From the NCBI GenBank assembly GCA_963663035.1, contig OY760074.1, positions 1,280,001-1,344,000 of the forward strand: DNA of 64,000 nt, in the 5' to 3' direction. The DNA comes from Acidobacteriota bacterium. Lineage in GTDB: Bacteria; Acidobacteriota; UBA6911; RPQK01; JADFOI01. The position numbers were made by a program, and so were the translations under genes. Shown here piece after piece: positions 13,447 through 28,196 of the stretch; positions within the stretch are counted from its first letter, which is position 1, and every line of letters begins with the position of its first letter. The notes beneath the pieces were generated by a model, which was given only the letters and a program-made list of their open reading frames with translations, had not been told where the DNA came from and did no database searches.

Positions 13447-14416
13447 GGCTGCACTGGAGCTCTCAATCATCATTCCGGTTTTCAATGAAGCCCAGACTCT
13501 TCAGCCGCTCTATGATCAACTCAAGTCAAGCCTTCAACCCTGGGAATCCAGCTGCGAAATCCTCTTCATCGATGATGGAAGTACCGATGGGAGCACCCAG
13601 GAGCTCCGGCGCCTGGCTGGATTGGACCCGAAGGTGCGGGTCCTGGAGTTCGTCCGCAACTTCGGACAAACCGCTGCCATTGCCGCCGGATTCGACCACG
13701 CCCGAGGGCAGATCATTATTCCTCTGGACGCGGATCTTCAAAATGACCCTCAGGATATTCCCCTTATTATGGAAAAGCTTGAGGAAGGTTACGATGTGGT
13801 CAACTGCTGGAGACAAGATCGGAAAGACCCCTGGCTGACCCGGATCTTTCCCTCTCGCCTGGCCAATCGATTGATCAGCTGGATTGGTGGCGTCCCTCTA
13901 CATGATTACGGCTGTACCTTGAAGGGCTATCGGCGGGATACGGTGAGGCACATTCGCCTCTACGGTGAGATGCATCGATTCATTCCCATCTTTGCCACCT
14001 GGGCTGGAGCCCGGGTGGCGGAAATCCCGGTCCGCCATCATCCTCGTCGTTTCGGACAGTCCAAGTACGGACTGCTCCGCACCGTGAAGGTACTCCTGGA
14101 CTTGATCACGGTGAAGTTTCTGGGAAGTTTCTCCACCAAACCCATGTATCTTTTCGGGGGTCTCGGTCTGCTCTCTTTTTTGGGAGGGGCAGTACTGAGT
14201 GGTGTGACCCTCTACCAGAAACTCTTTGAGGCTGTGAAGGCCCATCGCAATCCCCTGCTCTTGCTCTCCATCTTCCTCTTTACCGCTGGGCTCCAATTCA
14301 TCCTTTTTGGACTGGTGGCTGAGCTCATCGTGCGCACCTACCATGAATCACAGGATAAACCGACTTATCTTCTGAGGGGAAGGAGTCAGGAGGTAGGAGG
14401 CAGGAGGCAGGAGTAA
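13373..14416 (+). CDS. GT2 polyprenol-phosphate glycosyltransferase (ArnC/GtrB-like); start uncertain
   Basis: IPVFNE, DDGSTD, RNFGQ, DADLQNDP, two C-terminal TM helices. Confidence 0.88.
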   Translation: MANLTTSEKAGHLPSISSQTEEATEAALELSIIIPVFNEAQTLQPLYDQLKSSLQPWESSCEILFIDDGSTDGSTQELRRLAGLDPKVRVLEFVRNFGQTAAIAAGFDHARGQIIIPLDADLQNDPQDIPLIMEKLEEGYDVVNCWRQDRKDPWLTRIFPSRLANRLISWIGGVPLHDYGCTLKGYRRDTVRHIRLYGEMHRFIPIFATWAGARVAEIPVRHHPRRFGQSKYGLLRTVKVLLDLITVKFLGSFSTKPMYLFGGLGLLSFLGGAVLSGVTLYQKLFEAVKAHRNPLLLLSIFLFTAGLQFILFGLVAELIVRTYHESQDKPTYLLRGRSQEVGGRRQE

Positions 14417-14458: not shown

Positions 14459-16159
14459 CTAGCGATTCTGCCAGGGTTTTCTTTCGAAGTAGCTTTTGGT
14501 GAGCCTCACCACCACTCCAGACAGGAGAATCAAGGCGATGAGATTGGGAAAGGTGACCATTCCCAGCGCCACGTCTCCCAGGGTCCAAACGGTGGAGAGG
14601 GCAAAAAGAGCGCCCACAAAGTGCATGATCACAAAGACGATTTTATAGGGCAAAATCGCCTTGGGCCCGAACAGATAGTTGGCACACCGGTCCCCGTAGT
14701 AACTCCAGGAGATAGCCGTGGAGATGGCAAAGAGAAGCACGCTCAGCACGACGATGTAACCTCCCCAGGAGCCCAGCGGCGAGAGTCCCCGCTGAAAGGC
14801 CAGGGCCGTTAGGGGAGCTCCGTTTTCAACGGCCGGGCCGTATAAGCTCTGGTAGCGACTCCCATCATCTGCAACGGCAACCTGCTCAGAGGGCCGGATC
14901 TCTCCGCTAAAGAGCCGCTCCTGTTCCTGATCAACAAAGAACTCGTCGACCCTGACGTCATGCCAGGCAAAGCCGGCTTCCGCTGTTACCCTCAGGGGAC
15001 GGCCGGCCTCCACCCGAATGGTCTCGGGGATGGTGTCTCCCTCTGACTCGGCAAGATAGCTGATATCCCCTGAGGCCAAGGGAAACTCGGTTGACACCGT
15101 TTCCGTCCACACTCCGGTGATGAGGATAACCAGTCCGGTCATTGAACAAATGACAAGGGTGTCAATGAAGGGCCCCAGCAAGGCCACCACCCCTTCTGCA
15201 ACCGGTTCATCGGTTTTGGCCGCCGCATGGGCGATGGGGGCTGAACCCTGTCCGGCTTCATTGGAAAAAAGACCCCGCCGCACCCCCCACATCATGGTGA
15301 GGACGAACAGGCCCACTCCCGTGCCCGCCACACCGGCCGTAGGATGAAAGGCCTCTCTAAAGATCAAAGCAAAAGTGGGAATCACTTGATCGTAATTGAA
15401 GCTCAAAATGATGAGGGCACTGAGAACATAAATGACCGCCATGAGTGGTGCCAGTACGCTGGTCACCGTCCCGATGCGGGTGATTCCACCCACAATGACC
15501 AGAAAGACAAGGGTGGCTGCCGCTAGTCCCGTCATCCAGGAGGGAATGCCGAATTCAGTTGAGAGAACGTCCGCCATGGTGTTGGCCTGAATCCCGTTGC
15601 CGGTGAAAAAAGAGGTCACAATCATGGCGCCCGCAAAAAAGACGGCCATGGCTTTCCAGCGGGGGCCCAGTCCCTTCTCAATGTAGTACATGGGACCGCC
15701 GGAAGCGGTTCCAAAGCGGCCTCGACCCGTTGAATCCAGGGCTTCGACGACCCGGTAGTGCATGGCCAGAGTCACTTCCGCGAATTTGGTCACCATCCCC
15801 AGGACCGCCGTCATCCACATCCAGAACAGAGCCCCGGGACCGCCGAAATGAATGGCCAGTGCCACGCCTGCGATGTTGCCAATTCCAACGGTGGCGGACA
15901 GGGCAGTGCTCAAAGCCTGAAAGTGAGGCACATCTCCCGGGCTACTGGGATCGTCGTATTTGCCGGAGGTGAGTGCAAAGCCGTGGCCCAAACGGCGGAA
16001 CTGTATAAAGGCCAGACGAATCGTTAAAAAGAAGCCGGTTCCCAGAAGAGCGATGACGATGATGGGAATCGATCCCCCGCCAATTGTGGGCCCAAAACTC
16101 CAGGTGTAGTATTCCAGGAAGCTGACGATCTGCTGAAAGAACTCCATGGGCGAGGGCAT
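14459..16159 (-). CDS. Alanine/glycine:cation symporter (AGCS family)
   Basis: ATVGIGNIAGVA, GGPGALFWMW, GGPMYY, RGLFSNEAGQGS. Confidence 0.93.
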   Translation of the reverse strand: MPSPMEFFQQIVSFLEYYTWSFGPTIGGGSIPIIVIALLGTGFFLTIRLAFIQFRRLGHGFALTSGKYDDPSSPGDVPHFQALSTALSATVGIGNIAGVALAIHFGGPGALFWMWMTAVLGMVTKFAEVTLAMHYRVVEALDSTGRGRFGTASGGPMYYIEKGLGPRWKAMAVFFAGAMIVTSFFTGNGIQANTMADVLSTEFGIPSWMTGLAAATLVFLVIVGGITRIGTVTSVLAPLMAVIYVLSALIILSFNYDQVIPTFALIFREAFHPTAGVAGTGVGLFVLTMMWGVRRGLFSNEAGQGSAPIAHAAAKTDEPVAEGVVALLGPFIDTLVICSMTGLVILITGVWTETVSTEFPLASGDISYLAESEGDTIPETIRVEAGRPLRVTAEAGFAWHDVRVDEFFVDQEQERLFSGEIRPSEQVAVADDGSRYQSLYGPAVENGAPLTALAFQRGLSPLGSWGGYIVVLSVLLFAISTAISWSYYGDRCANYLFGPKAILPYKIVFVIMHFVGALFALSTVWTLGDVALGMVTFPNLIALILLSGVVVRLTKSYFERKPWQNR

Positions 16160-16223
16160 TATAACCTGACGAGCACACGGTCACTAGCCCGGATTACGCA
16201 TAGGTTCTTGCGGCAAGGGGAAG

Positions 16224-17576
16224 TCAGGCTGCTTTTTGGAGGGAGGCCTCGGCGCTGAGCCGCCTGTGTTCTCGCACAATTGCCACCACGATGGCGAGCC
16301 AGAGCAGTGTGAAGAGCACGTTGGCGATTGCGTAGCTTTGGATGCCGAAGGCCAGTTGTACACCCACAAACACGACCCCGGCCTGCAACATATCCCCGAC
16401 CCGCCAGAAAAAGGTGTCGATAGCTGCTTTGGCCTTGTACTTGGCCTCCCGGCTGGTCAGCAAAAAGAGGGCGTGCCGGGCGGTGTTATTGATGGAGTAA
16501 TCGGTGCTGTTCTCGAGCATTTTCACCATCCGGATGACGCCCAGGATGGGTGTCGCGATCATCAGGCCGTAGCTGCCCAGTGCCAGGCAGGGCAATATGA
16601 AGAGCGCCCCCCGGACCCCGATGTACTTGAAGATTCGGGAGACCAGGAACAACTGGAATAAGAAGCCCAGCAAATTGACCCAACCATAGAAGTCGCCAAA
16701 GAATTGCCCGATTATCACCTGCTGCTCGGCGATGTCGGCGGTTTGCTGTCCAACTGAAGCGAGCACCACCTTATCCAGAATGAACCCGCCCGTGGTGTTC
16801 ACGACATTGAGGAGCAAGACCGAAATCGCGATCAGAAGCAAATATCGCTCCGAAAAAACGAGCTTGAATCCACCCTCTTTTCCCAACGGTTTCTCAGCAG
16901 TCGCGGCTTTTTCCGGTGTGGCCCTTTCCCGCTCGCGGCGGTGAATTGCTTGGCTGATCACAATACTGGTACCAATACCGGCTGCGGCCACCAGCATAAG
17001 CGAGTAGGGTGCTGTGGCCGGGTCAAATTGACCGAACAGCCAGCTAGCCATCTTCGCCCCCAGCCAGGCGCCTAGCGCGGCTCCGACTCCCACAATAGGA
17101 AACAGCCGCTTGCCCTGTTCCTCTGTAAAGAGATCGTTAGCGAAGGCCCAAATTTGCGCCATCACCAGGAGACTAAAGATGCTGACCCAGATAAAAAAGG
17201 CCGCCCCAACCTGAACTCCGGCCAAACCCAGGAAGTAGAAGATTCCGAGATGAGAGATGAAAAACAGTGTGACCCAGGTGATGAGCCGAATCCGGTTGAC
17301 CCGAGCCGCAAAGCCGCCATAAGCCGGCACCAGGACAAGTAAGATCACCGCCGTCCCAGCGTAGAGGTAAGCTTTGACTTCCGCTCCACCTTCGGTCAGG
17401 ATCAAGGCATCCCGCACGGGCTTAAGAATGTAATAGGAGGCCAGCACCACAAAGACATTCAGCGCGAGAAGCACGACCGTGAGCCCTTCACCCGCTTTCA
17501 CCTGGGTGAAGATCGAAAGGGCACGGTCCAGAAGCCCTTTCCTGCCCTCCGTAATCGGAATTGGTGACGATTCCAT
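16224..17576 (-). CDS. NTT/TLC-family nucleotide (ATP/ADP) transporter, stand-alone
   Basis: YYILKPVRDAL, W.FANDLF..EQGKRLF, DYSINNTAR, KYKAKAAIDTFFWRVGD; start moved to MESSP because the longer ORF begins inside a MITE. Confidence 0.85.
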   Translation of the reverse strand: MESSPIPITEGRKGLLDRALSIFTQVKAGEGLTVVLLALNVFVVLASYYILKPVRDALILTEGGAEVKAYLYAGTAVILLVLVPAYGGFAARVNRIRLITWVTLFFISHLGIFYFLGLAGVQVGAAFFIWVSIFSLLVMAQIWAFANDLFTEEQGKRLFPIVGVGAALGAWLGAKMASWLFGQFDPATAPYSLMLVAAAGIGTSIVISQAIHRRERERATPEKAATAEKPLGKEGGFKLVFSERYLLLIAISVLLLNVVNTTGGFILDKVVLASVGQQTADIAEQQVIIGQFFGDFYGWVNLLGFLFQLFLVSRIFKYIGVRGALFILPCLALGSYGLMIATPILGVIRMVKMLENSTDYSINNTARHALFLLTSREAKYKAKAAIDTFFWRVGDMLQAGVVFVGVQLAFGIQSYAIANVLFTLLWLAIVVAIVREHRRLSAEASLQKAA

Positions 17577-17621
17577 ATTTCCGGGAATTATAACCCGACA
17601 GCCACACAATCGCCAGCCTAC

Positions 17622-17831
17622 GCCAGGACTACGCATAAGTTTTCTACTGCAGTGCCGCAATCATCCACGCTGACTGCGTTGTGCGACCCGCAAGCGGGTA
17701 CCCCTTGGGCTCCTCGGCGTACTACATGAGTACGCCTGCGGGGCCCGACCCGCAAGCGGGTACCCCTTGCACGCCTGGTCATCGCGGCGCCTGCGGCACT
17801 TCGTCACGAGAACCTATGCCATAGTACCGGC
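17622..17831 (+). mobile_element. MITE-like repeat, subfamily A, with internal core duplication
   Basis: Near-identical to 24613-24763; core GACCCGCAAGCGGGTACCCCTT at 17685-17706 and 17747-17768. Confidence 0.75.
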
Positions 17832-17862
17832 CTGTTGACGGCGGCTTCTCCTGTCGGAAATA

Positions 17863-18720
17863 ATGGGGTCCGCTATGGATATTTTCCAAGAGATCGTCCG
17901 GCTGCGCAGTGAAGGCCGCAAAGCCGTCCTGGCCACCGTTGTCCGCTGGCTGGGGAGTACACCGCGCCGCGACAACGCCAAAATGCTTATCCTGGAGGAC
18001 GGCTCGACCATGGGTTCCGTGGGGGGAGGCTCAACGGAGGCAGCGGTGCTGGAGGAAGCTCAAGTTGTTCTGGAGACTGAGCAAGCGTCGCTCAAGAAGT
18101 TCGAGCTCACTCAGCGGGAAGCGGCACAGGATGGACTCATCTGCGGAGGCACCTTGGAAGTCTTCGTAGAACCGATCCTGCCCGATCCCAAGGTGATCCT
18201 CATGGGCGCTGGGCACCTGGGACAGGCCATAGCAAAGGCAGCCCACCGGGTGGGTTTTGCGGTGGCCGTGGTCGATGACCGCGCCTCCTTTGCCAATTCC
18301 GAGCGTTTTCCACAAGCTCAAGAGACGATTGTCGCCCCCTTAGAGGAGAGCCTGGACTCAGTCACTGTCACCAAAAACAGCTTTATCCTCATCGTGACGC
18401 GTGGCCACGGCCACGACCAGGTGGCTCTGGAAGCGGCTGTACAGACACCGGCACGCTATGTGGGCATGGTGGGAAGCCGGCGCAAGATTGGAATCATCGT
18501 CAAAAACCTGCTGGACAAAGGCATTCCTGCGGAGGCTTTTTTTCACCTCTATGCCCCCATCGGATTGGAAATAGGCTCGGAAACACCCCAGGAGATTGCC
18601 GTCAGCGTGGTGGCAGAGCTGATCGCCATTCGCAAGGGGGTCCACCAGCGGAGCAAGAAACAACTCTTTGCCATGAAGCTCATCGAAGAAGCCCGCGCCA
18701 AAGCTCAAGAAGTGGGCTAA
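17863..18720 (+). CDS. XdhC/CoxI-family molybdoenzyme accessory protein
   Basis: GSTPR, GSVGGG, GLICGG, GAGHLG, VDDR, TRGH, GSRRK, PIGLEIG.ETP.EIA. Confidence 0.92.
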   Translation: MGSAMDIFQEIVRLRSEGRKAVLATVVRWLGSTPRRDNAKMLILEDGSTMGSVGGGSTEAAVLEEAQVVLETEQASLKKFELTQREAAQDGLICGGTLEVFVEPILPDPKVILMGAGHLGQAIAKAAHRVGFAVAVVDDRASFANSERFPQAQETIVAPLEESLDSVTVTKNSFILIVTRGHGHDQVALEAAVQTPARYVGMVGSRRKIGIIVKNLLDKGIPAEAFFHLYAPIGLEIGSETPQEIAVSVVAELIAIRKGVHQRSKKQLFAMKLIEEARAKAQEVG

Positions 18721-18750
18721 CGCGCTTCGCCTGTCAGCTGTCAGTGGTCA

Positions 18751-18810
18751 GGGGCCCGCAAGCTAAAGCCTGCGGTTCTGACGGAGCCGTGGGCTTCAGC
18801 CCACGGGCCA
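18751..18810. repeat. Fragment of the MITE internal palindromic cassette
   Basis: GAGCCGTGGGCTTCAGCCCACGG and GCTAAAGCCTGCGG match blocks in the 35.8 and 57.3 kb copies. Confidence 0.6.
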
Positions 18811-18815
18811 GGCTC

Positions 18816-20015
18816 TCAGTTGTTAGCGTCTAGGTAAAGAGCTGTGAATTTCCCGTCCTGAATCTCCAGTGCCGAGGCCTTGCCCCCCTTGTAAAAGCTT
18901 GAGAGCATCCCGCTATCGATCAGAAAGAGTTTTTCCTCAAACCGTGCCTGGATGTGCCCGGGGAGCTGCGGCGTGTGTCCCACCACGAAATGCTTGGCAT
19001 CATAGGCTTCCAGCAGCCGTGCCAGGTGCCTTGCGCCCTCCTCTGTTGACCACTCGGCAAATCCGCGAAACCACAGGGGCCCATCCGGATGTGTGCTGAG
19101 CCAGCTGCCGAGGGTCAGAAACTCTTTCAGGATCGTGACCTGCTCTGGCTCGGGTCGGCCCTCTTTCCTTGCCCGCTCCTCTTGTCGCTCAACTTCTGCC
19201 TGGGCTGTTGAGGTGATCTCATTCAAGTCAAAGAAGGACAGAATCAGCTTTTCTTTCACCATGTACTCGGTATAGTTGTCAAACGCCTCAATCTCCGCTT
19301 GGATTCGCTGGTTGATCTCCTTCAATTTCAAGGAGGCAAGATTGGGATGGATGCCGCCATGAAGGAAAATGGTATCGGCTACCTGCACGACTGCCGGCCG
19401 CTCCCGCAGCCAACGGCCATACTTCCCTTTGGGCTCCATGGCCTTCCGGTATTCCAGAAAGCCGGGCGGGTGGGCCTGCATCCATTGCCTTTCAGACTCT
19501 GAAGTGATCTGGCTTGGCTCGTCCAGGGCCTCGGCCCGCCGTTTGAGTAGTTTCACGTAGTCCTGATAGGCCTCCTGGCGGCGTTTCTCCGACTTTTCGT
19601 CTGCGAAACTGAGATAGGTTTCTGGTGCAACATAGCGCATGTCTCCCTGGAGAATTATCATTTCATGGTTACCCAGCAAAACGATGACCTCTCCGTCACT
19701 TTTGGGCGCCTCCTTTTCCAGTGCCATCAACAGATCCATGACTTGGCGATCTTTGGGTCCACGATCAAGCATGTCCCCCGTCTGCACCAGGGTTGTATCC
19801 CCACCCGTCCAATGGTGCTGGTGGTCAATGATCTCCAATTCCTGAAGAATCGCCACCAGGGAATCGAAGTCACCATGAATGTCGCCCACGGCCAGCAGAC
19901 GGGCTGAAGCGTTTGCTCCCATGGCCGGGGGCAGCAGCAAGACAGCCGAGAGTGCGACCAGCAGGCCTAAGCCAGCGAGTTTTCCGTAAATACGATTGAA
20001 ACGCGTGCCCATCAT
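18816..20015 (-). CDS. Secreted calcineurin-like (PPP/Shewanella-like) metallophosphoesterase
   Basis: Signal peptide; GDIHG, GDMLDRG, GNHE, HGG, PLWFRG, VVGHT, IDSG. Confidence 0.88.
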   Translation of the reverse strand: MMGTRFNRIYGKLAGLGLLVALSAVLLLPPAMGANASARLLAVGDIHGDFDSLVAILQELEIIDHQHHWTGGDTTLVQTGDMLDRGPKDRQVMDLLMALEKEAPKSDGEVIVLLGNHEMIILQGDMRYVAPETYLSFADEKSEKRRQEAYQDYVKLLKRRAEALDEPSQITSESERQWMQAHPPGFLEYRKAMEPKGKYGRWLRERPAVVQVADTIFLHGGIHPNLASLKLKEINQRIQAEIEAFDNYTEYMVKEKLILSFFDLNEITSTAQAEVERQEERARKEGRPEPEQVTILKEFLTLGSWLSTHPDGPLWFRGFAEWSTEEGARHLARLLEAYDAKHFVVGHTPQLPGHIQARFEEKLFLIDSGMLSSFYKGGKASALEIQDGKFTALYLDANN

Positions 20016-20081
20016 CGATCTGCTTTCATTCTATCCCAGAAGGAGAGTTTGGAGGGAGAGTTCGGAGGGAGAGCTCGGGGC

Positions 20082-20978
20082 CTATCTCATCGTGTAGAGC
20101 ACTCCGCCTTCGCCGTTTTCGTCGATGAGTTTCTGGATGTGCTCCACCAGCAGGCGCCTTCGCTCCAGCAGGCCACTGAGTTCATAAGGGCGCACATAGT
20201 CCTCGAGTCGCTCCCGGACAAGAGCTTCATCCAGCGTCTGCAGTTTTTCCCACAGCTTCCGATCGACAAAGGTGATCAGCTCCGGATTCTGCAGCTGCTT
20301 CCAGCGCCGAAAGGTTCGACCGTGATCGACCATCCAGATCTTCCAGTCAGAGTCGATCAGAAGGTTGCCTATATTTCGGTCCTCGTTGTAGATGAGATTG
20401 TCGAAAAGATACAAGGTTTGAGTTCGCATCAGCCAACGCCATCGCTGGAGGCCCTCGCTGGGCACCTCAACATTCTCCTTTATGAGGTCCCCTTGCATCC
20501 TGGTGTTCTCAACCCAGATTTGTACCGTGCCCCTGCTGCCCTGGACCCTACGTGCCACGGCGGGGGGGACCGTGTCCATGCCCAGCAGCTTGGCCAGTTC
20601 ATAGGCCGCGCACTCGAAATCAGCGTCATCGCGGAAGAAATATTTGGTCGTGCCGTCAGCCAGTTTCTTCTCGGGGCTTTCTTCATGATTGTCACGAAAG
20701 ATGGCGTGCATCTGGACCCCATCCTTCTCCAGCAAGAGTTGGTAGAAGCTGTTGATTCCCTCTCCGATGCGTCTTCGCGAGACGACCTCGCCTGTTCGCA
20801 AGAACTCCTCGATTTCTTCATTGCTCTGAAAGGGCAGCGGTTGTAGGTCAGCATCCAGCCACACGCTCGAGCTGGCCGTCTGGGCCGGGCTGAGTGATAC
20901 TGCCGAGAGTCCAACCAGCAGCCCGATGACGCAAAGTCCCATGGAGTTTCGAGGAATAAGGTTGAAGAGTTTGGACAT
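20082..20978 (-). CDS. Secreted atypical kinase (PI3/4K-, Fam20-, HipA-like fold)
   Basis: Signal peptide; GEGIN loop, AIFR, ECAAYELAKLLG..VPPAVAR, FDNLIYNEDRNIGN, MVDHGRTF. Confidence 0.7.
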   Translation of the reverse strand: MSKLFNLIPRNSMGLCVIGLLVGLSAVSLSPAQTASSSVWLDADLQPLPFQSNEEIEEFLRTGEVVSRRRIGEGINSFYQLLLEKDGVQMHAIFRDNHEESPEKKLADGTTKYFFRDDADFECAAYELAKLLGMDTVPPAVARRVQGSRGTVQIWVENTRMQGDLIKENVEVPSEGLQRWRWLMRTQTLYLFDNLIYNEDRNIGNLLIDSDWKIWMVDHGRTFRRWKQLQNPELITFVDRKLWEKLQTLDEALVRERLEDYVRPYELSGLLERRRLLVEHIQKLIDENGEGGVLYTMR

Positions 20979-21086
20979 ATTCGCCCTCCAGATTTATTCT
21001 AATGCTACGACTTTGAGAGTTCAAAGGCAATAGAAAGTCTGCCAGATGGCCTCAGCGCTGCTCTTCCCTCGACCCTCGGTTCTTTT

Positions 21087-24000
21087 TTGGATATGATCCC
21101 GCCCAACAGGGCAACTCAAAAGGGAGGTGAAACCCTGAATCGCTTACTACGGCTTTTCTCCGTACGCTCCCAGGAAGCGCTCCCGGCACTGCTCATGGCT
21201 GTGTACTTCTTCCTGGCTATGGCCTGTGTCAGTATGGTGAAATCCCTACAGATTGCCCTCTATTTGAGCCGGGTGGGCTTTGATTGGCGGCTGCCCTCTC
21301 TGTACACAGTTCTGGTTCTACTCTCCGGTCTGATTGTTCTCCTTTACCGTTACCTGGCTCGCCAATACTCTCATTTGGGCATAGCCCTCAGCACCCTTGT
21401 CTTCTTCATCCTCAGCCTCGTATTTTTTTGGTTCCTGGTGGGAAGGGAGCAATTGTGGGTCTACCTTACCTTTTATATCTGGGGAGGCCTCTTCAGCTTA
21501 CTACTCCCCACCCTGGGTTGGGTGATTGCGCTCGATCTTTACAATACACGAGAGGCCAAACGTCTTTTTGCCCTGTTTGGAACAGGGGGGATTCTAGGCG
21601 GCGCCTGCGGCGGCTATTACATCGCCCTGGTCTCGGGGACGCTCGATGCCAGGTGGCTGTTCATACACGTCCTTGTTACCTTGTTTATTTTGCAAGGAGT
21701 ACTGCTGGCAATCTATCGCGTTAAAGGCAGCCGCTTGCTGCTCAGGCACCCAACCCCCTCCGAGACTCTTCCCTCGCCGACTACCGCCTCTGCCCTGCGC
21801 GACCTCCTGGCATCGCCCTATCTGACCTATCTGGCCGGGATTGTCCTGGTCTCTGCCTTTACCACCACCCTGATTGACTTGCAATATCAGTGGTTCTTAG
21901 AACGACGATACCCGGGTTCGGAGGAACAAATCACCTGGTTTGTGGGGACACTGCTGGGGACCATGTACGTGTTCTCAGCACTTTTTCAGTTGTTTGCCAC
22001 TCGTTCCGTCCTGCGCAATTTTGGTGTTGGTGTGGCCCTGCTGGTCCTTCCTCTGGCCCTTCTGGGCGGGTCAGCGAGTATTGTCATTCTTGCCGGCTTT
22101 GGGGCCGTCGTGACTTTCAAAGGCATCGATGGATTTCTCCGCCCTTCCATCCATCGGACCGGCCTGGAGGTGCTTTATGTACCCATCTCAAGTCCTCAAA
22201 CCGTAACCCTGAAGAGCTTCATTGATCTGGCCGTCTTCCGTTTCGGCGATGCTCTGGGAGCAGCTTTTTTTCTGGCAGCTACCAGTCTGTTTGTCACTCC
22301 GGTGGCAGCCATTCAGACCACAATTCTGCTGGCAGCTCTTGGCTGGGCCTTCCTGGCCCTCCAGCTGGGGAGGCAGTATGTGGAAAGCCTGCGCCAAAGC
22401 CTGGAGGGCAAGTCAGCCCGGCGCCTGCCGCCCTCCCTTTTGTTGGAAGGGGCCGGGGCTCAGATTGCTCTATTAGAGGCACTGGAGAGCCTCAACCCCA
22501 ACAAGGTTCACTTCGCCCTGGAACAACTCGCGGCGGTCAATCCGAGCAGTGAAGAGGGCACAACAACAGAGCTTCCCGTTCATGGGGAAGAGCTTTTGCA
22601 GTCTCAGGTGCCCAGCCTTTACCCGGTCAGTCAGGGATGGTTAGAAACAGTGGAACCCCTGGTCAATCATGTGGATTCCCGAGTGGGCGCTGCTGCTTTT
22701 CACGTGTTAGTGCGTCAGGATCCCACCAAATATTTGGAACGTCTGAAGGAGAAGCTGGAGTCCAAAGGGGTGCCTGAAACAGTGTATTTGCACTACCTGG
22801 ACCTCTATAGCGAGGACCCCGCCAGTTTTATCACGCCTTCTCAGCTGTTGCAGTGGAGCCGGGATGAGCGAGCGGACATGGTTTCTATCCTGGCTCGTTT
22901 GATGGGGAAGATCAAAAGCCCCGCTTTTCTCCCTGTCCTCAGGACGTGGATGAGCGGACTGCCCGGGGAACCGGCACGAGCCGCCATTGAAGCCATCGGG
23001 CAATATGCAGAGCCGCGCCTTCTGGACGCTCTCATCAGTCTTCTGGAACCCAACTGGAGTCGTCCGGCGGCATGTCGGGCCCTCATTCATTATGGCGATG
23101 CGGCCGTTTCACGTCTCCGAGAGCTGCTTCGATACCCGGCAGTTGGACCTTTCATTGCACGGCAAATTCCCTTCATTCTCACCCGCATCAACTCATCATC
23201 CTCACGAGCAGGACTTGTGACAGCCCTTTATTCAGCTGATCCCGCGGTCTCCTACAGTGCCCTCAAGGGTCTGAACAAAATTCGAGACTCCCAGGATCTT
23301 TCCTATACCCAGGGTTCCTTTATGCCGCTGCTGCAAATATGGGCCAAACAGTACTATGAACTGGTGAATATTGAATCTATGGTAAGCAAGAGAGAGGGAA
23401 ACGTCTGGGAACTGCTCCGTAAAACGAACGGTGAGCGAATGGACTGGACAATTGAAAAGATCTTTCGAGGCTTGGAGCTGTTCCTGCCCCGCGGAGATGC
23501 CTATTTTTCCTATCTGGGATACACCAGCAGCAAGCAGGAACTTCGGGAAAACGCCATCGAGCTGATCGATGCCAGGATCAAAGGTGAACTCAGACAGACC
23601 TTACTTCCCATCTTCAGCGGGGACAGTCGGCACGAGCTGGCCCGCACAGGACGTCGGCTGTTTCATCTTCCCTCTGATCGGGACGGAATCGCTCTGGATG
23701 CACTCTCGGACGTGGACTCCTGGCTGCGATGCTGTGTCATGGCCGCCCTGAGAGAGCAGCCCAGCCCGATCCTTGAAAAAGCTGTGCGGATGGCTTGCCA
23801 AGACGTTGATTCTGTGGTTCAAGAGACCGCCCAATGGGTCTTGACAAGCATGGCAACAGCTCCTGCGATACATGATGAGAGGAGATCTATTATGCTGACA
23901 ACAATTGAAAAAGTCCTTCTTCTGCAAGAGGTGGAGCTTTTCAGTTCCGCTTCAACAGATCACCTGGCCCAATTGGCCCAACTCTGTCAGGAAAAGCTGT

Positions 24001-24317
24001 ACAAGGCGGGCGAGAGTTTGTTTCAGAAGGGAGAGCCCCATTCAAAGTTCTTTCTTCTAGTCGAAGGTTCTGTGAGCCTGGATGACCAGGAAAATGAAGA
24101 AACAGTGGGAAAATGCGCGCTGGATTTCTGGTCCTGGGTGGGCCAGACTCCGCACGAGGTGAGCGCCAAATGTGTGGACGATTGTACTGTCTTGCTGCTC
24201 CCCTTTCAGGACCTGGTTGACCTTTTGTGCGGCGAACCGGGTCTGAGCTGGGCGATTCTCCAGTATCTCGCCAAGGCAGGTCGGGTCATGGCCCCAAACT
24301 TTCCTACCGTTGCATAA
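21087..24317 (+). CDS. NTT-family transporter fused to HEAT repeats and a C-terminal cNMP-binding domain
   Basis: N-terminal TM region with REAKRLF and KSFIDLAVFRFGDALG; helical HEAT-like middle; MLTTIEKVLLLQEVELF..LFQKGE cNMP-like domain. Confidence 0.82.
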   Translation: MDMIPPNRATQKGGETLNRLLRLFSVRSQEALPALLMAVYFFLAMACVSMVKSLQIALYLSRVGFDWRLPSLYTVLVLLSGLIVLLYRYLARQYSHLGIALSTLVFFILSLVFFWFLVGREQLWVYLTFYIWGGLFSLLLPTLGWVIALDLYNTREAKRLFALFGTGGILGGACGGYYIALVSGTLDARWLFIHVLVTLFILQGVLLAIYRVKGSRLLLRHPTPSETLPSPTTASALRDLLASPYLTYLAGIVLVSAFTTTLIDLQYQWFLERRYPGSEEQITWFVGTLLGTMYVFSALFQLFATRSVLRNFGVGVALLVLPLALLGGSASIVILAGFGAVVTFKGIDGFLRPSIHRTGLEVLYVPISSPQTVTLKSFIDLAVFRFGDALGAAFFLAATSLFVTPVAAIQTTILLAALGWAFLALQLGRQYVESLRQSLEGKSARRLPPSLLLEGAGAQIALLEALESLNPNKVHFALEQLAAVNPSSEEGTTTELPVHGEELLQSQVPSLYPVSQGWLETVEPLVNHVDSRVGAAAFHVLVRQDPTKYLERLKEKLESKGVPETVYLHYLDLYSEDPASFITPSQLLQWSRDERADMVSILARLMGKIKSPAFLPVLRTWMSGLPGEPARAAIEAIGQYAEPRLLDALISLLEPNWSRPAACRALIHYGDAAVSRLRELLRYPAVGPFIARQIPFILTRINSSSSRAGLVTALYSADPAVSYSALKGLNKIRDSQDLSYTQGSFMPLLQIWAKQYYELVNIESMVSKREGNVWELLRKTNGERMDWTIEKIFRGLELFLPRGDAYFSYLGYTSSKQELRENAIELIDARIKGELRQTLLPIFSGDSRHELARTGRRLFHLPSDRDGIALDALSDVDSWLRCCVMAALREQPSPILEKAVRMACQDVDSVVQETAQWVLTSMATAPAIHDERRSIMLTTIEKVLLLQEVELFSSASTDHLAQLAQLCQEKLYKAGESLFQKGEPHSKFFLLVEGSVSLDDQENEETVGKCALDFWSWVGQTPHEVSAKCVDDCTVLLLPFQDLVDLLCGEPGLSWAILQYLAKAGRVMAPNFPTVA

Positions 24318-24341
24318 TCCCAGCTTGTGTATAATGAACCC

Positions 24342-24545
24342 ATGCCGATCTTCGAGTACCGGTGTAGCGATTGCAAAACCAACTTTGAGAAGATTGTGTT
24401 GAGCAGCTCAGCTTCCAGCGAGTGTCCCAACTGTAACAGCACCCGAATCGAGCAACTGCTTTCAACCTTCGCGGTTGGTGGAAGATCCACCTCCACGACA
24501 TCGGTTTCTCATGAACGTGCCTGTGGCCGCGGAAGCTTCACCTGA
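24342..24545 (+). CDS. FmdB-family zinc-ribbon protein (may read through UGA to 24554)
   Basis: MPIFEYRCSDC...CPNCNS..LLSTF; TATAAT at 24330-24335 just before the ATG suggests a leaderless mRNA. Confidence 0.88.
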   Translation: MPIFEYRCSDCKTNFEKIVLSSSASSECPNCNSTRIEQLLSTFAVGGRSTSTTSVSHERACGRGSFT

Positions 24546-24583
24546 GCGGCCTAGTTCTGGCAGAGCCGGTGGCTCTGAATCTA
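24546..24583 (+). promoter_or_regulatory. Candidate bacterial SECIS hairpin
   Basis: CAGAGCC-GGT-GGCTCTG stem-loop; loop starts 22 nt after the UGA; no U tract follows. Confidence 0.5.
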
Positions 24584-24612
24584 TAGTCCGAACTCTGTTA
24601 CACTCCCACCTC

Positions 24613-24763
24613 TAGCCGGGATTATGCATAAATTTTCTACTGCAGTGCCGCAATCATCCACGCTGACTGCGTTGTGCGACCCGCAAGCGGGTACCCCTCG
24701 CACGCCTTGTCATCGCGGCGCCAGCGGCACTTCGTTACGAAAATCTATGCATAACCCCGGCTA
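24613..24763 (+). mobile_element. MITE-like repeat, subfamily A
   Basis: TIR TAGCCGGGATTATGCATA ... TATGCATAACCCCGGCTA; TA at both ends. Confidence 0.85.
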
Positions 24764-24803
24764 AGTTCCCATTTCGCGTACATGGCACAGGAGCAGAATT
24801 ATA

Positions 24804-25061
24804 ATGATGAGCAGTATTTTTTTGATCGACATCCTCGGCTGGATCGGTGCGGGAGGACTTCTGATAGCCTATGCACTTGTCTCAGCCAAAAGGGTAGAAG
24901 GCGACTCAACTGGCTACCAGCTCCTGAATACAGTAGGGAGTATCTTTCTCATGATCAACACGATCCACTACGGAGCCTACCCGTCTGCTCTCTTGAATTT
25001 GTTTTGGCTGGGGGTGGCAATCTATGCCATGAGAAAAGCAATATTTCGACGAGCAGCTTAG
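24804..25061 (+). CDS. Small membrane protein, CBU_0592-like
   Basis: GWIG..L.AY.L, YQLLN.VG, AYPS..LN..W; about 3 TM helices. Confidence 0.7.
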   Translation: MMSSIFLIDILGWIGAGGLLIAYALVSAKRVEGDSTGYQLLNTVGSIFLMINTIHYGAYPSALLNLFWLGVAIYAMRKAIFRRAA

Positions 25062-26431
25062 GGCCAGATCCCTCGCTCCAGGGTCACCCGGGCCACTCGC
25101 TCAATCGCCAGCACGTAGGCGGCTGTGCGTAGATCTACGGGTACGAGAGGTTCACCAGCCGGATCTCGTTCCTTTCGCTGGCTTTCCAGAGCGTCTAACG
25201 ATCCGTTGATCTCCCGCTGCTTTTCGAGCACCCCTTCGGTCGCCCGTGTCATCTTCACCTGCAACTTGCCATTCACCTCGTCAAGATCCCACTTTTCATT
25301 CTTGTTGTTTTGGACCCACTCGTAATAACTGACCGTGACTCCTCCTGCGTTGGCGAGTATGTCTGGAAGCACGGGCACTCCCATCTCGAACAGAATACGG
25401 TCGGCTGCTGGCGTCGTGGGACCGTTGGCTGCTTCTGCTATGAAGCGGGCCCGCATCTGAGAAGCGTTATCCTGGCGAATCTGATTCTCTAGTGCCGCCG
25501 GAATGAGGATGTCGCAGGGGAGCGTCAAGAGCTCTTCATTACTCACACCGCTGGTGTTTGGGAGATCCACGACTGAGCCTGTGCGCTTCTTGTGTTCAAG
25601 GACTGCGGCCGTATCCAGTCCCTTTGGCTGATGGATTCCACCTCGTGAGTCGCTCACTCCGATGATACAAGCACCCGCCTCCTCAAACAGTTCGGCAGCA
25701 ATGGCGCCCGCATTGCCAAACCCCTGCACCACAACGGTAGCGCCTTTGACCTTCTCCAGGCCCGGAACGACACCCTGGAGCAGGGCATGTTGAGTGGCAA
25801 ACAAGCAGCCGCGTGAGGTGGCCTCGTGACGGCCCAGAGATCCACCCAGGTCCACGGGTTTGCCAGTGACCACTCCCAGATTGTTCTGGCCCAGGTGCAT
25901 CATATGGTAGGTATCGTAGATCCAAGCCATGGTCTCGGCGTTGGTGTTGACGTCGGGAGCCAGGATGTCTTTGTGAGGTCCGATATTTTCGCCCAGCTCG
26001 ACAATGAAGCGCCGCGTGATCTTCTCCAAGTCACTGGTGGTGAGTGTTTTGGGGTCACAAACCAAGCCTCCTTTGGCACCGCCAAAGGGCAGGTCTAATA
26101 CTCCGCACTTCCAGGTCATCCAGGAGGCCAGGGCCCGCACCTCATCTGCAGTGACATCCGGGTGGTAGCGGACCCCTCCTTTGCCGGGTCCTCGACCCTG
26201 GTTGTGCACGGCTCGATATCCCACAAAGTTCTTAACTACGTGGTCTTCAGTCTCAATGGGAAACTCGACCGTGACCAGCCTATCCGACCTCTTCAGGAAC
26301 CTCCCCAGACCGGCCTCCAGCGTGGGAATGTAGCGGGCAGCCCAGTCAAACTGTTGCTGGGCGATGTTGTACGGGTTCAGATCCTCTTTGCCTTTCGGGT
26401 TTTGAGCTTCTAATCTTGCAGGTTGTATCAT
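25058..26431 (-). CDS. gdhA: Glu/Leu/Phe/Val (glutamate) dehydrogenase
   Basis: GPGKGGVRY, MTWKC, GGAKGG, APDVNT, QGFGNAG, EAANGP, NAGGVTVSYYEW; AGGAG RBS before ATG at 26431. Confidence 0.9.
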   Translation of the reverse strand: MIQPARLEAQNPKGKEDLNPYNIAQQQFDWAARYIPTLEAGLGRFLKRSDRLVTVEFPIETEDHVVKNFVGYRAVHNQGRGPGKGGVRYHPDVTADEVRALASWMTWKCGVLDLPFGGAKGGLVCDPKTLTTSDLEKITRRFIVELGENIGPHKDILAPDVNTNAETMAWIYDTYHMMHLGQNNLGVVTGKPVDLGGSLGRHEATSRGCLFATQHALLQGVVPGLEKVKGATVVVQGFGNAGAIAAELFEEAGACIIGVSDSRGGIHQPKGLDTAAVLEHKKRTGSVVDLPNTSGVSNEELLTLPCDILIPAALENQIRQDNASQMRARFIAEAANGPTTPAADRILFEMGVPVLPDILANAGGVTVSYYEWVQNNKNEKWDLDEVNGKLQVKMTRATEGVLEKQREINGSLDALESQRKERDPAGEPLVPVDLRTAAYVLAIERVARVTLERGIWP

Positions 26432-26511
26432 TTCACTCCTCTCAAACAGTCTACCAACAAACGGGAGACTGTGAGGTCTGTCTGCCCATGAGCAACCCCT
26501 TTTCTTAAAGA

Positions 26512-26528
26512 TGCACTCTTTGGGTGCA
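26512..26528. promoter_or_regulatory. NtrC-like palindrome TGCAC-N7-GTGCA upstream of gdh
   Basis: TGCACTCTTTGGGTGCA, about 80 bp upstream of the start codon. Confidence 0.4.
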
Positions 26529-26633
26529 AGATGCTCAAAGTCTTGTCCAAGGCCTGCGACTCCACAAGGATTCACAGTGTTTCCACACTTTTTGTGGAAA
26601 GTGACTCTTTTTTTGGATAACCTCGTACCAGAA

Positions 26634-26891
26634 ATGAAGGTGATTGCCGAGCAAACCCTGAAAGACACAGTTCTCCAGATGGACGACCATCACTTTGAAG
26701 ACTGTACCATCACACAATGTATTCTCGTGTTTAGTGGAGGAGACTTCAGTTGGACCAACTGTAAGTTCGTGAATTGCCAGATTCGGTTTGTTGGAGCAGC
26801 CGGGAAAACCCTCAACTTCTTGAAGCACTTCGGGATGGTGCCACAAGCTCCCAAGAGAGCGGAGACGGTTGGCTCAAGCTCGGTACATTGA
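26634..26891 (+). CDS. Small hypothetical protein (short beta-helix-like F..C.I repeats)
   Basis: FEDCTITQC, WTNCKFVNC pattern. Confidence 0.6.
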   Translation: MKVIAEQTLKDTVLQMDDHHFEDCTITQCILVFSGGDFSWTNCKFVNCQIRFVGAAGKTLNFLKHFGMVPQAPKRAETVGSSSVH

Positions 26892-27286: not shown

Positions 27287-27488
27287 TAGCCCGCACTTCT
27301 CACACCCGCTCTGCTGCATCGGCGCAATGATCCGCCCTGCCTGTGTTGCACGACCCGCAAGCGGGTGCCCCTCGCACGCCAGTCGGAGCCGAGGGCTTTA
27401 GCCTGCGGGCCCGTGGGCTAAAGCCCTCGGCTCTGTTTTCCGGCCCTTCCGCCGCTTCGCGACGACCTAGTGTGAGAAATGCGGGCTA
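27287..27488 (+). mobile_element. MITE-like repeat, subfamily B
   Basis: TIR TAGCCCGCACTTCTCACAC ... GTGTGAGAAATGCGGGCTA; inverse-oriented homolog of 57346-57549. Confidence 0.85.
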
Positions 27489-28196
27489 ACTGTCGTGGAG
27501 GCAGCTGAGCAGGAAGAGCAGGAGTTGGTTCTGCTCTTCAGCTTCCAACTGCAGGAACTCCAGGGCAACTGCATTGAGGGATTCTCCGTCGCGTTCGACC
27601 GGTTCAGACCGAACCACCCATCCCACTGCATTCACCAGCTGTGAGGGGGGCAACCGAAGGTTCATCTCCAACCTGTCCCCTAAGGTCAAGGGAAGACTTG
27701 TCTCGAATTTCAAGCCACCCACGCTGATGTTTTGGGTCTTGGATTGAGGAACCTTTTCGCCCACGAGCTGGGCTTTAGCAGCATCAATGACCGTGAATGA
27801 GAAAGGGATCGGCACACGAACTCGAGCCGCTTTCCTGCGCTGGACGGATATCCCTTCGCGAGGTCTTGAGATCAACACTCGTTCATTAGCAGGGCCGGAG
27901 ACGGTGAGGATCTCGGAGTCAAAGTAGTAGACCGCCTCTTCCCAGTATTTGATCCGAACTCGGTCTCCTTTTCCAAAAGAGCGCTCCGAGGTGCATCTCA
28001 ACAGTTCGAGGCCGATCTGCTCTGCAGAGATCTCCGTGACCGTGGCCGCCAGTTCGGCGCTGGGTTTCAGCAGGGGGGAAACAGAGAGCTTCAACCCGAC
28101 AGTGAGGTAACGGTCAGGGCCTTCGATGGAAACCCGTGCGAAGCTCAACCCGGGATCACGTTTCGGTTTACGACTTTTTGGATTCACTATCATCAT
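27486..28196 (-). CDS. PilZ-domain c-di-GMP receptor (YcgR-like); start uncertain
   Basis: QRRKAAR (RxxxR) and NISVGG (D/NxSxxG). Confidence 0.85.
   Translation of the reverse strand: MMIVNPKSRKPKRDPGLSFARVSIEGPDRYLTVGLKLSVSPLLKPSAELAATVTEISAEQIGLELLRCTSERSFGKGDRVRIKYWEEAVYYFDSEILTVSGPANERVLISRPREGISVQRRKAARVRVPIPFSFTVIDAAKAQLVGEKVPQSKTQNISVGGLKFETSLPLTLGDRLEMNLRLPPSQLVNAVGWVVRSEPVERDGESLNAVALEFLQLEAEEQNQLLLFLLSCLHDS

Follow-up and report, generated by a model that had tools for sequence, protein, structure and literature searches.

Linkage of a Fam20-like kinase, a Shelph phosphatase and NTT-family carriers in Acidobacteriota suggests ATP-driven phosphorylation outside the cytoplasm

The window, which is the whole 64,000-nucleotide stretch analysed here, comes from an uncultured soil or sediment Acidobacteriota bacterium, and all coordinates refer to it. 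A cluster of four genes, encoding a kinase, a phosphatase and two NTT carriers, had been reported in an initial annotation, and the gene calls confirm its coordinates, spacing and orientation. The features of the region are:

16224-17660, minus strand: stand-alone NTT/TLC carrier P0004 (longest open reading frame 478 aa; Pfam TLC 50.1 bits)
17863-18720, plus strand: XdhC-family maturation factor (Pfam XdhC_C, E 4.2e-41, and XdhC_CoxI)
18816-20015, minus strand: predicted exported Shelph PPP metallophosphatase P0002 (399 aa; Metallophos E 7.9e-15)
20082-20978, minus strand: predicted exported Fam20-like kinase P0001 (298 aa; Pfam matches sub-threshold, assigned by fold and family profile)
20979-21086, no strand: divergent intergenic region separating the NTT-HEAT gene from the kinase-phosphatase operon (108 bp)
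21087-24317, plus strand: NTT(TLC)-HEAT-cNMP fusion carrier P0003 (1076 aa; TLC, HEAT_2 and cNMP_binding, all above cut-offs)

The kinase and phosphatase genes are separated by 66 bp, and 108 bp lie between the starts of the kinase gene and the divergent NTT-HEAT gene; from the phosphatase stop to the stand-alone carrier is about 1.15 kb, with xdhC in between on the opposite strand. Sigma-70-like hexamers, which are consensus matches only, occur in or near the intergenic region on both strands (minus, 21024..20996; plus, 20972..21000 and 21069..21097), and Rfam gave no match at E≤0.1 over positions 16000-25000. Three sets of metatranscriptome contigs yielded just two short contigs that match exactly (17001-17154 and 18388-18600), which are not usable as evidence of transcription, all remaining matches falling on a repeat at 17633-17819. 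The genome (3.59 Mb) has two kinase copies and two phosphatase-like genes. It has only two TLC-like genes, and because both of these flank the kinase-phosphatase pair, the cluster is beyond chance.

P0001 was compared with known kinases by single sequence, by family profile and by fold. Alone it has no match to the Pfam Fam20C model (PF06702) at E≤0.01; assignments to PI3_PI4_kinase (PF00454; E 0.0036, 17.7 bits against a cut-off of 27.1) and to HipA_2 (E 0.0098, below the Pfam cut-off) were rejected, and TIGR03843 matches at E 1.2e-17, yet under that model's cut-off. Searched against PDB, a profile of 32 family sequences finds Fam20A (2.1e-5), the Hydra Fam20 xylosylkinase (1.8e-4) and Fam20C (6e-4), with PI4KII trailing at 0.019, and it aligns the motifs E-AAY/F-L...VPP-V-R, FD-LI-N-DR and (I/L)D-x-R-F between the kinase family and Fam20. 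One relative, P0126, exceeds the Pfam Fam20C cut-off (29.4 versus 26.8 bits). The AF2 model of P0001 has a pLDDT of 87.3 and a pTM of 0.83, with residues 1-37 disordered; its top Foldseek ranks are all Fam20C or Fam20A (best E 1.4e-10). The wide VIA search places Hydra Fam20 (Z 19.7 over 239 aa, rmsd 3.7), DrFam20C1 (Z 19.6) and C. elegans Fam20 (Z 18.8) at the head, these three alignments spanning 238-241 residues, and PI4KII-alpha next at Z 18.1, within about 1.5 Z of Fam20. The comparison with Fam20C suggested in the initial annotation therefore reveals real homology, by fold (Foldseek and VIA) and by family profile, between the bacterial P0001 and the Fam20 kinases of the secretory pathway.

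The presumed catalytic residues are strongly conserved: among 76 family members D200 and N205 are present in all, D218 in 75 and E122 in 73. D200, N205 and D218 align with DRHHYE and LDNG/LDNA of Fam20, and correspond to the catalytic Asp and Asn of the DRxxxN loop and the metal-binding Asp of D-x-G. The lysine of the Fam20 FKP motif binds ATP; the position aligned with it is Arg95 in 72 of the 76 sequences (N, T, S or H in the remaining four), so nucleotide handling may differ from that of Fam20. Profile searches recover 5,534 cluster representatives of the family at E≤1e-3, of which 940 reach E≤1e-30, pointing to a large bacterial family of putatively exported Fam20 homologues, a conclusion that stands without any ATP-export step.

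P0002 is assigned by its motifs and nearest relatives to the Shewanella-like ("Shelph") PPP enzymes. Among solved structures it is closest to the Shewanella cold-active protein-tyrosine phosphatase/psychrophilic phosphatase I (E 9.5e-29 to 3.7e-28), and by sequence score other PPP clades in PDB are far behind (ApaH, 1.4e-4; Rhizobiales-like phosphatase, 2.2e-4). The motifs GDIHGD, GDMLDRG, GNHE, HGG, GHT and IDSG are all present, and 34 phosphatase sequences without exception share D45, H47, D81, R85, N116, H117, H219, H347 and D367. The Shelph set is described as GDxHG, GDxxDRG, GNHE, HGG and GHT plus (I/L/V)D(S/T)G in the available text of Andreeva and Kutuzov 2004 (PMC535813); P0002 shares with the Shelphs (Shewanella PDB entries 1v73, 2z72 and 2zbm) all of the PPP metal-binding motifs and the last motif, and also the insert between GNHE and HGG. 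It differs from Shelphs as described there in its predicted signal peptide and in its apparently obligatory pairing or fusion with a Fam20-like kinase. The best NCBIfam match at the P0002 N-terminus is to ApaH, the symmetrical Ap4A hydrolase, and is sub-threshold (E 3.9e-11). A complex prediction for the phosphatase (36-399) with the kinase (38-298) scored 0.00, which carries no weight either way.

Export of both enzymes, proposed in the initial annotation, is supported by prediction. Each N-terminus has a basic start, one hydrophobic segment and then a small-residue site. The predicted signal peptide of P0001 covers about residues 1-33 (hydrophobic segment 12-30, putative cleavage site SPA/QT), ahead of a kinase core at residues 40-298; that of P0002 covers about residues 1-34, with a putative site AMG/A. 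Such features are conserved across the families. Of 60 assessable kinases, 46 have an N-terminal hydrophobic segment, and Thr/Ser-rich signal-like segments appear in most of the remaining 14; the hydrophobic segment is also present in 20 of 21 phosphatases and in 8 of 8 phosphatase-kinase fusions.

Both carriers exceed the Pfam TLC (PF03219) cut-off of 21 bits, P0004 with 50.1 and P0003 with 47.3, and both are far under the cut-off of 387.2 bits for TIGR00769 (NTP/NDP exchange transporter), scoring 52.6 and 43.7 respectively. P0004, which probably starts at Met29 (position 17576), has among PDB sequences at E≤1 only the Chlamydia and Arabidopsis ATP/ADP carriers as matches (4.3e-7 and 3.1e-5). 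Its AF2 model (pLDDT 82.1) has the NTT-type 12-helix fold and is closest in Foldseek to AtNTT1 (E 4.2e-10, TM 0.71) and C. pneumoniae NTT1 (E 8.2e-10, TM 0.73); NorA is the next family at 1.8e-6, with other MFS proteins at 1.8e-6 or worse. Identity to the solved NTTs is 17-18%, and the AELWG motif common to both of these aligns with WVSIF in P0004. For P0003 the true start codon is probably the ATG at position 21093. By a crude hydropathy profile the protein has about 12 membrane segments followed by a soluble tail of 650 aa, and the layout is a membrane domain at about aa 30-430, HEAT repeats at about aa 470-930 (HEAT_2, E 3e-10) and a cNMP-like domain at about aa 943-1062 (cNMP_binding, E 5.7e-8). 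We assign P0003 and P0004, on these profile and model matches, as divergent members of the NTT/TLC family of ATP:ADP antiporters, which we take to be TCDB 2.A.12. They resemble PamNTT1, CpNTT1 and AtNTT1, of Chlamydiae, Rickettsia and plastids, in the Pfam TLC domain (both proteins) and in best fold match (P0004); their host is free-living, unlike those of the characterised ATP/ADP translocases.

The canonical phosphate-binding cassette for cAMP or cGMP has a conserved Glu and Arg. The best PDB matches of the P0003 cNMP-like domain are PKG/PKA CNB domains (about 2e-9), and its cassette region reads GKCALDFWSWVGQTPHEVSA, which looks non-canonical against that motif; that of the ortholog at locus L004 reads EKRALDFWSWVGQTRHEVSA, and L062 differs again. 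The domain is found on the carriers of close relatives only. Cyclic-nucleotide control of the module, raised in the initial annotation, is accordingly put in doubt both by this distribution and by the appearance of the cassette. NTT-HEAT-cNBD fusions have been described by Major, Embley and Williams 2017 (PMC5381601), and P0003 has exactly the three-domain architecture reported in the available part of that paper; in L062 the cNBD is a separate downstream open reading frame, as is also described there. The same text knows the NTT-HEAT clade from Cyanobacteria and Chlamydiae, proposes cAMP tuning of ATP uptake, with which the seemingly non-canonical cassette region of P0003 may be at odds, and in the part available gives no function for the NTT-HEAT carriers.

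Conservation of the cluster was examined in 79 related loci and in 301 sampled Acidobacteriota genomes. Among the 79 loci, a phosphatase is no more than 5 kb from the kinase in 40 and an NTT-like carrier in 25, with 12 kinase copies within 150 bp of an NTT-like gene; 35 loci, including the second kinase copy of this genome, have neither at that distance. Gene order varies, with KIN->PPP, PPP->KIN and fused arrangements and with carriers divergent, downstream or convergent, and at several loci PPP->KIN->NTT-HEAT all run in one direction; the linkage extends to at least one Gemmatimonadota locus, L080. No other gene family occurs in more than 8 of the 79 loci. Seventy-five of the 301 genomes are kinase-positive, and 69 of these have the phosphatase and 69 a TLC gene; kinase and phosphatase occur together in 69 genomes, kinase alone in 6 and phosphatase alone in 1, counts that overstate the support since related genomes share ancestry and are not independent. 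Weaker TLC matches are present in five of the six kinase genomes that lack a TLC call, in two of them 3.4-3.5 kb from the phosphatase. Thirty-three genomes have a TLC gene no more than 9 kb away from the kinase or phosphatase (median gap 2.1 kb). TLC genes, including NTT-HEAT-sized frames, also occur in 22 of the 301 genomes without the kinase, and the carrier is therefore not dedicated to it.

Natural phosphatase-kinase fusions with a single signal peptide are common. Eight fused open reading frames were found among the 79 loci, and one that was read through has both motif sets in frame and both Pfam domains; 36 of the best 150 kinase-family representatives are 594-803 aa long with the kinase at the C-terminal end, and Metallophos is at the N-terminus in 9 of 10 long representatives tested. 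Apparent PPP-KIN-NTT-HEAT "mega-ORFs" of 1,348-1,601 aa (L035, L039, L044 and L065) were discarded as artefacts; on translation L035 and L039 are Arg/Pro-rich and run out of frame across upstream genes.

The linkage of kinase, phosphatase and carrier is not due to chance. The co-occurrence in other genomes on which the initial annotation had made its proposal depend is found for these three families, in neighbourhood and in phyletic pattern, and kinase and phosphatase are also fused; of the four-family neighbourhood it had put forward, the stand-alone second carrier is not a conserved part. Pairing of the kinase with the Shelph phosphatase appears near-obligatory, and this too stands without the ATP-export step. 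The module would seem to be conserved in Acidobacteriota, with relatives in other phyla.

Other neighbours lie outside the module. The xdhC gene (NF045664, E 3e-89, below its cut-off) was found by tblastn in none of the 79 related loci and is an unrelated insert, and a Na/alanine symporter gene at 14459-16159 recurs in only one. Outer-membrane-like DUF5916 genes near both kinase copies were dismissed as partners: the family has 30 matches genome-wide, so their proximity to the kinases is chance.

These observations suggest ATP-driven phosphorylation outside the cytoplasm. The carriers would exchange adenine nucleotides over the inner membrane, passing ATP to the periplasm and returning ADP with or without Pi, as the equivalent in bacteria of the import that brings ATP into the ER/Golgi lumen; the kinase would spend this ATP on exported substrates, whether protein, glycan or lipid, and the phosphatase would either reverse the mark or process the nucleotide product. 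The HEAT tail, presumably cytoplasmic and here joined to the cNMP-like domain, might gate supply from the cytoplasmic side. We hold this reading, of a conserved three-part module in which carriers bring ATP to an exported kinase and phosphatase, tentatively and at somewhat below an even chance. The interpretation in the initial annotation is partly supported.

The carriers might instead serve uptake, importing nucleotides or another organophosphate while the exported enzymes condition or sense phospho-compounds, with no ATP export. The direction of transport in characterised NTTs, which import, is in keeping with this: according to the available text of PMC1951785, PamNTT1 strongly prefers to import ATP, exchanges negligibly in reverse and is independent of membrane potential, and the direction proposed here is opposite to that preference. 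The similarity of the phosphatase to ApaH, in NCBIfam and in PDB, makes a nucleotide substrate conceivable, and other uptake genes adjoin the cluster, such as the Na/alanine symporter, although this is beside the kinase in that single locus of the 79. Uptake would, however, leave an extracytoplasmic kinase with no phosphoryl donor, and the conserved catalytic loop argues for an active phosphotransferase. The dependency is also asymmetric, nearly all kinase genomes having a carrier and 22 carrier genomes lacking the kinase, so that a supplier-client relation fits better; we consider uptake unlikely. Alternatively, the module may operate as proposed with a phosphatase that is no eraser and supplies the carrier with its counter-substrate by hydrolysing the nucleotide product, such as ADP or dinucleoside polyphosphates, much as luminal nucleoside diphosphatases serve the Golgi nucleotide-sugar transporters. 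That the two enzymes are obligatorily paired and often fused suits consecutive steps no less than opposing ones, and the ApaH-like similarity agrees with the former, as does the PDB title 'ADP/Pi bound AtNTT1', which indicates that NTTs handle ADP plus phosphate. The closest solved relative of P0002 nonetheless carries a protein-tyrosine phosphatase annotation, the available text of PMC535813 counts eukaryotic Shelphs among the protein phosphatases, and we regard product hydrolysis as quite unlikely.

Very unlikely, in our estimate, is that the genes share only regulation or ancestry, the kinase-like protein being a binder or having other chemistry and the carriers an unrelated, cytoplasm-directed role. 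The top sequence match, Fam20A, is a pseudokinase within the Fam20 family, Arg replaces the kinase lysine, and NTT-HEAT proteins are widespread without the kinase; against this, the linkage persists through altered gene orders and reaches the Gemmatimonadota locus, and D200, N205 and D218 are kept in 75-76 of 76 sequences.

The Fam20 family comprises the Golgi casein kinase Fam20C, the xylosylkinase Fam20B and the pseudokinase Fam20A. Fam20 kinases and P0001 are alike in fold, in motifs, in the catalytic Asp and Asn and metal-binding Asp, and in a predicted signal peptide or non-cytosolic action. The solved Fam20 chains are 350-430 aa long, in contrast to a core of about 260 aa in P0001, and have the FKP lysine where the bacterial family has Arg; a further contrast with Fam20 is that the family of P0001 has a PPP phosphatase as its partner or fusion domain and is linked to an NTT carrier. 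FAM20 appears as a eukaryote- or Metazoa-specific cluster in the available part of a kinome survey (PMC9758233), and bacterial homologues are not mentioned in the Fam20 papers that were text-searched. In the literature searched we found neither the exported bacterial Fam20 family, nor its Shelph pairing, nor the module of Fam20-like kinase, Shelph phosphatase and NTT carrier. A broader proposal, which is possible but which we would rate as more doubtful than probable, is that many free-living bacteria run periplasmic Fam20-type phosphorylation fuelled by NTT-exported ATP, a prokaryotic parallel to the eukaryotic arrangement of secretory-pathway kinases and luminal ATP import and possibly its evolutionary origin. 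If so, the periplasm would not be uniformly free of ATP, and the NTT and NTT-HEAT genes that free-living bacteria carry, long unexplained, would encode ATP exporters for exported enzymes. The role of these carriers in free-living bacteria, left open in the available text of PMC5381601, would become testable if the reading holds. ATP-dependent enzymology in the bacterial periplasm could likewise be tested with a defined gene set, as could the origin of the animal Fam20 secretory kinases.

LpxT resembles the module in carrying out phosphoryl transfer at the periplasmic side of the inner membrane; its phosphate donor is undecaprenyl pyrophosphate, not ATP, and, unlike the module here, it has no soluble kinase or nucleotide carrier. 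The available text of PMC2229476 describes it as a membrane enzyme that adds phosphate to lipid A and is linked to undecaprenyl phosphate synthesis.

The four-gene arrangement claimed in the initial annotation, a kinase and a phosphatase flanked by two NTT-type carriers, was reproduced exactly by the ORF list and domain scans:

16224-17660, minus strand: 478-aa stand-alone carrier, P0004 (Pfam TLC 50.1 bits, cut-off 21)
17863-18720, plus strand: XdhC-family protein (XdhC_C and XdhC_CoxI)
18816-20015, minus strand: 399-aa phosphatase, P0002 (Metallophos E 7.9e-15)
20082-20978, minus strand: 298-aa kinase-like protein, P0001 (only sub-threshold PI3_PI4_kinase and HipA_2 matches)
21087-24317, plus strand: 1076-aa carrier, P0003 (TLC, HEAT_2 and cNMP_binding, each above cut-off)

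The kinase and phosphatase genes share an orientation with a gap of 66 bp, and the kinase gene is divergent from the NTT-HEAT gene, with 108 bp between them. At the N-terminus of both P0001 and P0002, a basic stretch and one hydrophobic segment precede a cleavage-type site of small residues. The window spans 1,280,001-1,344,000 of a single 3.59-Mb contig, and its genome has only two TLC genes, those flanking the kinase–phosphatase pair.

P0002 has every PPP metal-binding motif together with the bacterial-type IDSG motif, and its metal ligands are invariant across 34 sequences. The nearest solved relatives are entries for the Shewanella cold-active protein-tyrosine phosphatase (E 9.5e-29 to 3.7e-28); weaker matches, near 1e-4, are to ApaH and a Rhizobiales-like phosphatase. 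By these sequence features P0002 is a member of the Shewanella-like PPP (Shelph) group, as defined in the accessible part of Andreeva and Kutuzov (PMC535813). The Toxoplasma Shelph is placed in the parasite ER by the excerpts available. The same genome encodes a second Shelph-like metallophosphatase (G000:C1:214834-215721; L086:1123-2190), 34% identical over the N-terminal half, whose gene adjoins one for an LCAT-like lipase/acyltransferase and has no kinase gene nearby.

A structure model of P0001, built from a 32-sequence alignment of the kinase family (A1), has a pLDDT of 87.3 and a pTM of 0.83, with disorder at residues 1-37 only. The top Foldseek matches are all Fam20C or Fam20A chains (from E 1.4e-10), followed by PI4KII at about 1e-6. 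The initial annotation had suggested comparison with Fam20C, PI4K-II and HipA, and an aligner independent of Foldseek places the Fam20 structures best (Hydra Fam20, Z 19.7; zebrafish Fam20C1, 19.6; C. elegans Fam20, 18.8), then PI4KII-alpha (18.1), CtkA (14.7), CotH (11.6) and HipA (11.1). Fam20 and PI4KII are not separable by fold alone, but they are separable by sequence: the A1 profile matches Fam20A at 2.1e-5, the Hydra xylosylkinase at 1.8e-4 and Fam20C at 6e-4 and 7.9e-4, with PI4KII later at 0.019. In its alignments to Fam20 three elements correspond: E-AAY/F-L ... VPP-V-R of the alpha-C region, FD-LI-N-DR of the catalytic loop, and the metal-binding motif. The tandem-kinase relative P0126 scores above Pfam's own Fam20C threshold, and PF06702 is found on 22% of the members of a Myxococcota ESM-Atlas neighbour cluster. 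Across 76 sequences of the family D200 and N205 are invariant, and D218 (75/76) and E122 (73/76) nearly so; the residue aligned with the Fam20 FKP lysine is, however, an arginine (Arg95) in 72 of the 76. The family is large: when 1.84 billion representatives were searched with a profile, 5,534 matched at E<=1e-3, of which 940 reached E<=1e-30. Among the kinase relatives found in the genome scans, record titles point almost exclusively to Acidobacteriota MAGs. The structurally nearest Fam20, that of Hydra, is a sugar kinase, and the others are protein kinases (PMC5865150, in the portion available). P0126 itself (671 aa) has two Fam20-like kinase units in tandem, which calls to mind the pairing of Fam20A with Fam20C.

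To examine gene neighborhoods, one genome per species was scanned, which yielded 363 kinase relatives; the best 79 loci were kept, and partners were sought in these by tblastn with the window proteins. The proposed conservation of the neighborhood is borne out, with kinase, phosphatase and NTT-type carrier recurring together within 5 kb in 21 of the 79 best loci; a phosphatase is within 5 kb of the kinase in 40, an NTT-like gene in 25, and neither partner in 35. Forty-five kinase copies are flanked by at least 5 kb of sequence on each side; of these, 17 have both partners, 10 have the phosphatase alone, one has the carrier alone, and 17 have neither. Gene orders include KIN->PPP as in the window, a co-directional PPP->KIN->NTT-HEAT, and arrangements with a second convergent kinase; this variation argues for selection on proximity. 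The window's other genes are not recurrent (alanine symporter 1/79, glutamate dehydrogenase 1/79), xdhC was found by tblastn in none of the 79 loci, and clustering of all 1,059 ORFs revealed no fourth gene family in more than eight of them.

Phosphatase and kinase are also joined in single proteins. Fusions are encoded at eight of the 79 best loci, and the 719-aa example at locus L064 has a single signal peptide, both motif sets in frame and both Pfam domains. Thirty-six of the 150 best kinase-family representatives are 594-803 aa long and carry the kinase at their C-terminus, and nine of ten such proteins tested have Metallophos at the N-terminus. Another kinase homologue, P0075, has the first phosphatase motif ('VVAVGDIH') after its signal peptide and then the kinase, and by its sequence looks like the remnant of a collapsed fusion. 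Longer ORFs of 1,300-1,600 aa running into the carrier gene (L035, L039, L044 and L065) were rejected as false fusions, on a reading of the translated frames of L035 and L039; they arise because, in these GC-rich loci, an alternative frame runs without a stop through the phosphatase and kinase genes upstream. Such frames are a trap for ORF-based fusion calls.

Both carriers are above the Pfam TLC threshold and far under the NCBIfam NTP/NDP exchanger model. At E<=1 the PDB sequence matches of P0004 are Chlamydia and Arabidopsis ATP/ADP carriers only, and its model (pLDDT 82.1) fits AtNTT1 and CpNTT1 best (TM 0.71-0.73), with other MFS proteins behind. A crude hydropathy profile of P0003 shows about 12 membrane segments and then a 650-aa tail, which would be cytoplasmic given the even number of helices. 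Its cNMP-like domain matches the CNB domains of PKG and PKA at about 2e-9; the cassette region appears to lack the Glu/Arg signature. Among relatives this domain is fused in L004 (a closer relative), a separate ORF in L062, and partly matched in L032 and L047. The architecture of P0003 is the NTT-HEAT-cNBD type of Major, Embley and Williams, described in the available text as monophyletic, widespread and uncharacterised (PMC5381601).

Co-occurrence was examined in a sample of 301 Acidobacteriota genomes, which are related and whose counts are therefore not independent. The kinase is present in 75, the phosphatase (E<=1e-30) in 70 and TLC in 91, the last including an unpublished TLC-only genome (G049) that enters TLC totals only. 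Kinase and phosphatase occur together in 69 genomes (kinase without phosphatase in six, phosphatase without kinase in one), kinase and TLC in 69 (kinase without TLC in six, TLC without kinase in 22), and all three in 63. When five of the six genomes with kinase and without TLC were re-searched at a looser threshold, all five gave weak TLC matches, and in two closed genomes among them the match is 3.4-3.5 kb from the phosphatase. In at least 33 genomes the kinase or phosphatase is no more than 9 kb from a TLC gene; among the matches listed, the median gap is 2.1 kb.

The initial annotation had read the locus as an ATP-fed extracytoplasmic phosphorylation system, and of this the module stands as real, conserved and composed of enzymes predicted to be exported. 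The interpretation is thus supported in part; ATP export, a writer/eraser pairing and control by cyclic nucleotides are hypothetical. The description that fits best is a bacterial version of Fam20-type phosphorylation outside the cytosol, one whose carrier partner is unprecedented. Bacterial homologues go unmentioned in the two Fam20 papers searched, including the available portion of PMC5865150; a kinome survey, in its accessible text, describes the FAM20 cluster as eukaryote- or Metazoa-specific and groups some Legionella kinases with FAM20/CotH (PMC9758233). Literature searches on bacterial or Acidobacteria Fam20 and on periplasmic ATP, kinases or phosphorylation returned nothing on the module, though the carriers may appear in the supplementary trees of PMC5381601.

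The reading we prefer, tentatively and at a little under an even chance, is that ATP from the carriers fuels the exported Fam20-like kinase, that the phosphatase acts after it, and that the carrier tail regulates supply. The carriers would deliver ATP to the periplasm and take ADP back, with or without Pi; the kinase would spend this ATP on exported substrates, the phosphatase would reverse the mark or process the nucleotide, and the tail, predicted to be cytoplasmic, would regulate the ATP supply. The main argument is the phyletic asymmetry: kinase genomes nearly all have phosphatase and carrier, and carriers also occur without the kinase, as a supplier–client relation predicts. Against this reading count the strong divergence of the carriers and the behavior of PamNTT1, which favors import and is insensitive to membrane potential (PMC1951785, in the part available). 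Also against it count the arginine-for-lysine difference, which may alter nucleotide handling by the kinase, and the many solitary kinase copies.

Such solitary paralogues are common, with up to seven or more kinase matches per genome. The second copy in the window's own genome (G000:C1:111016-111750; L003:6762-7757) is 44% identical and has no phosphatase or carrier nearby; its neighbors are two tannase/feruloyl-esterase genes, an amidohydrolase, a TPR protein and a CBM9/DUF5916 protein. The DUF5916 family (28261-30486 in the window) shows a strong expansion, the 3.59-Mb genome having 30 matches. Downstream of the NTT-HEAT gene lie a glutamate dehydrogenase with an N-terminal extension of about 130 aa (25058-26668) and a PilZ-domain protein (27486-28196), and two overlapping genes, one for a PMT_2-type (ArnT/protein-mannosyltransferase-like) membrane glycosyltransferase and one of GT2 type, lie 6 kb from the kinase (11821-14416). 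In the gap that separates the stand-alone carrier from xdhC, a hairpin-bearing repeat, CCCGCAAGCGGGTACCCCTTG, occurs at 17687-17707 and 17749-17769; it has 159 genome copies at up to 2 mismatches, versus none for a reversed control, and looks like a REP/MITE-type element. This region also has partial matches to metatranscriptome contigs of other organisms.
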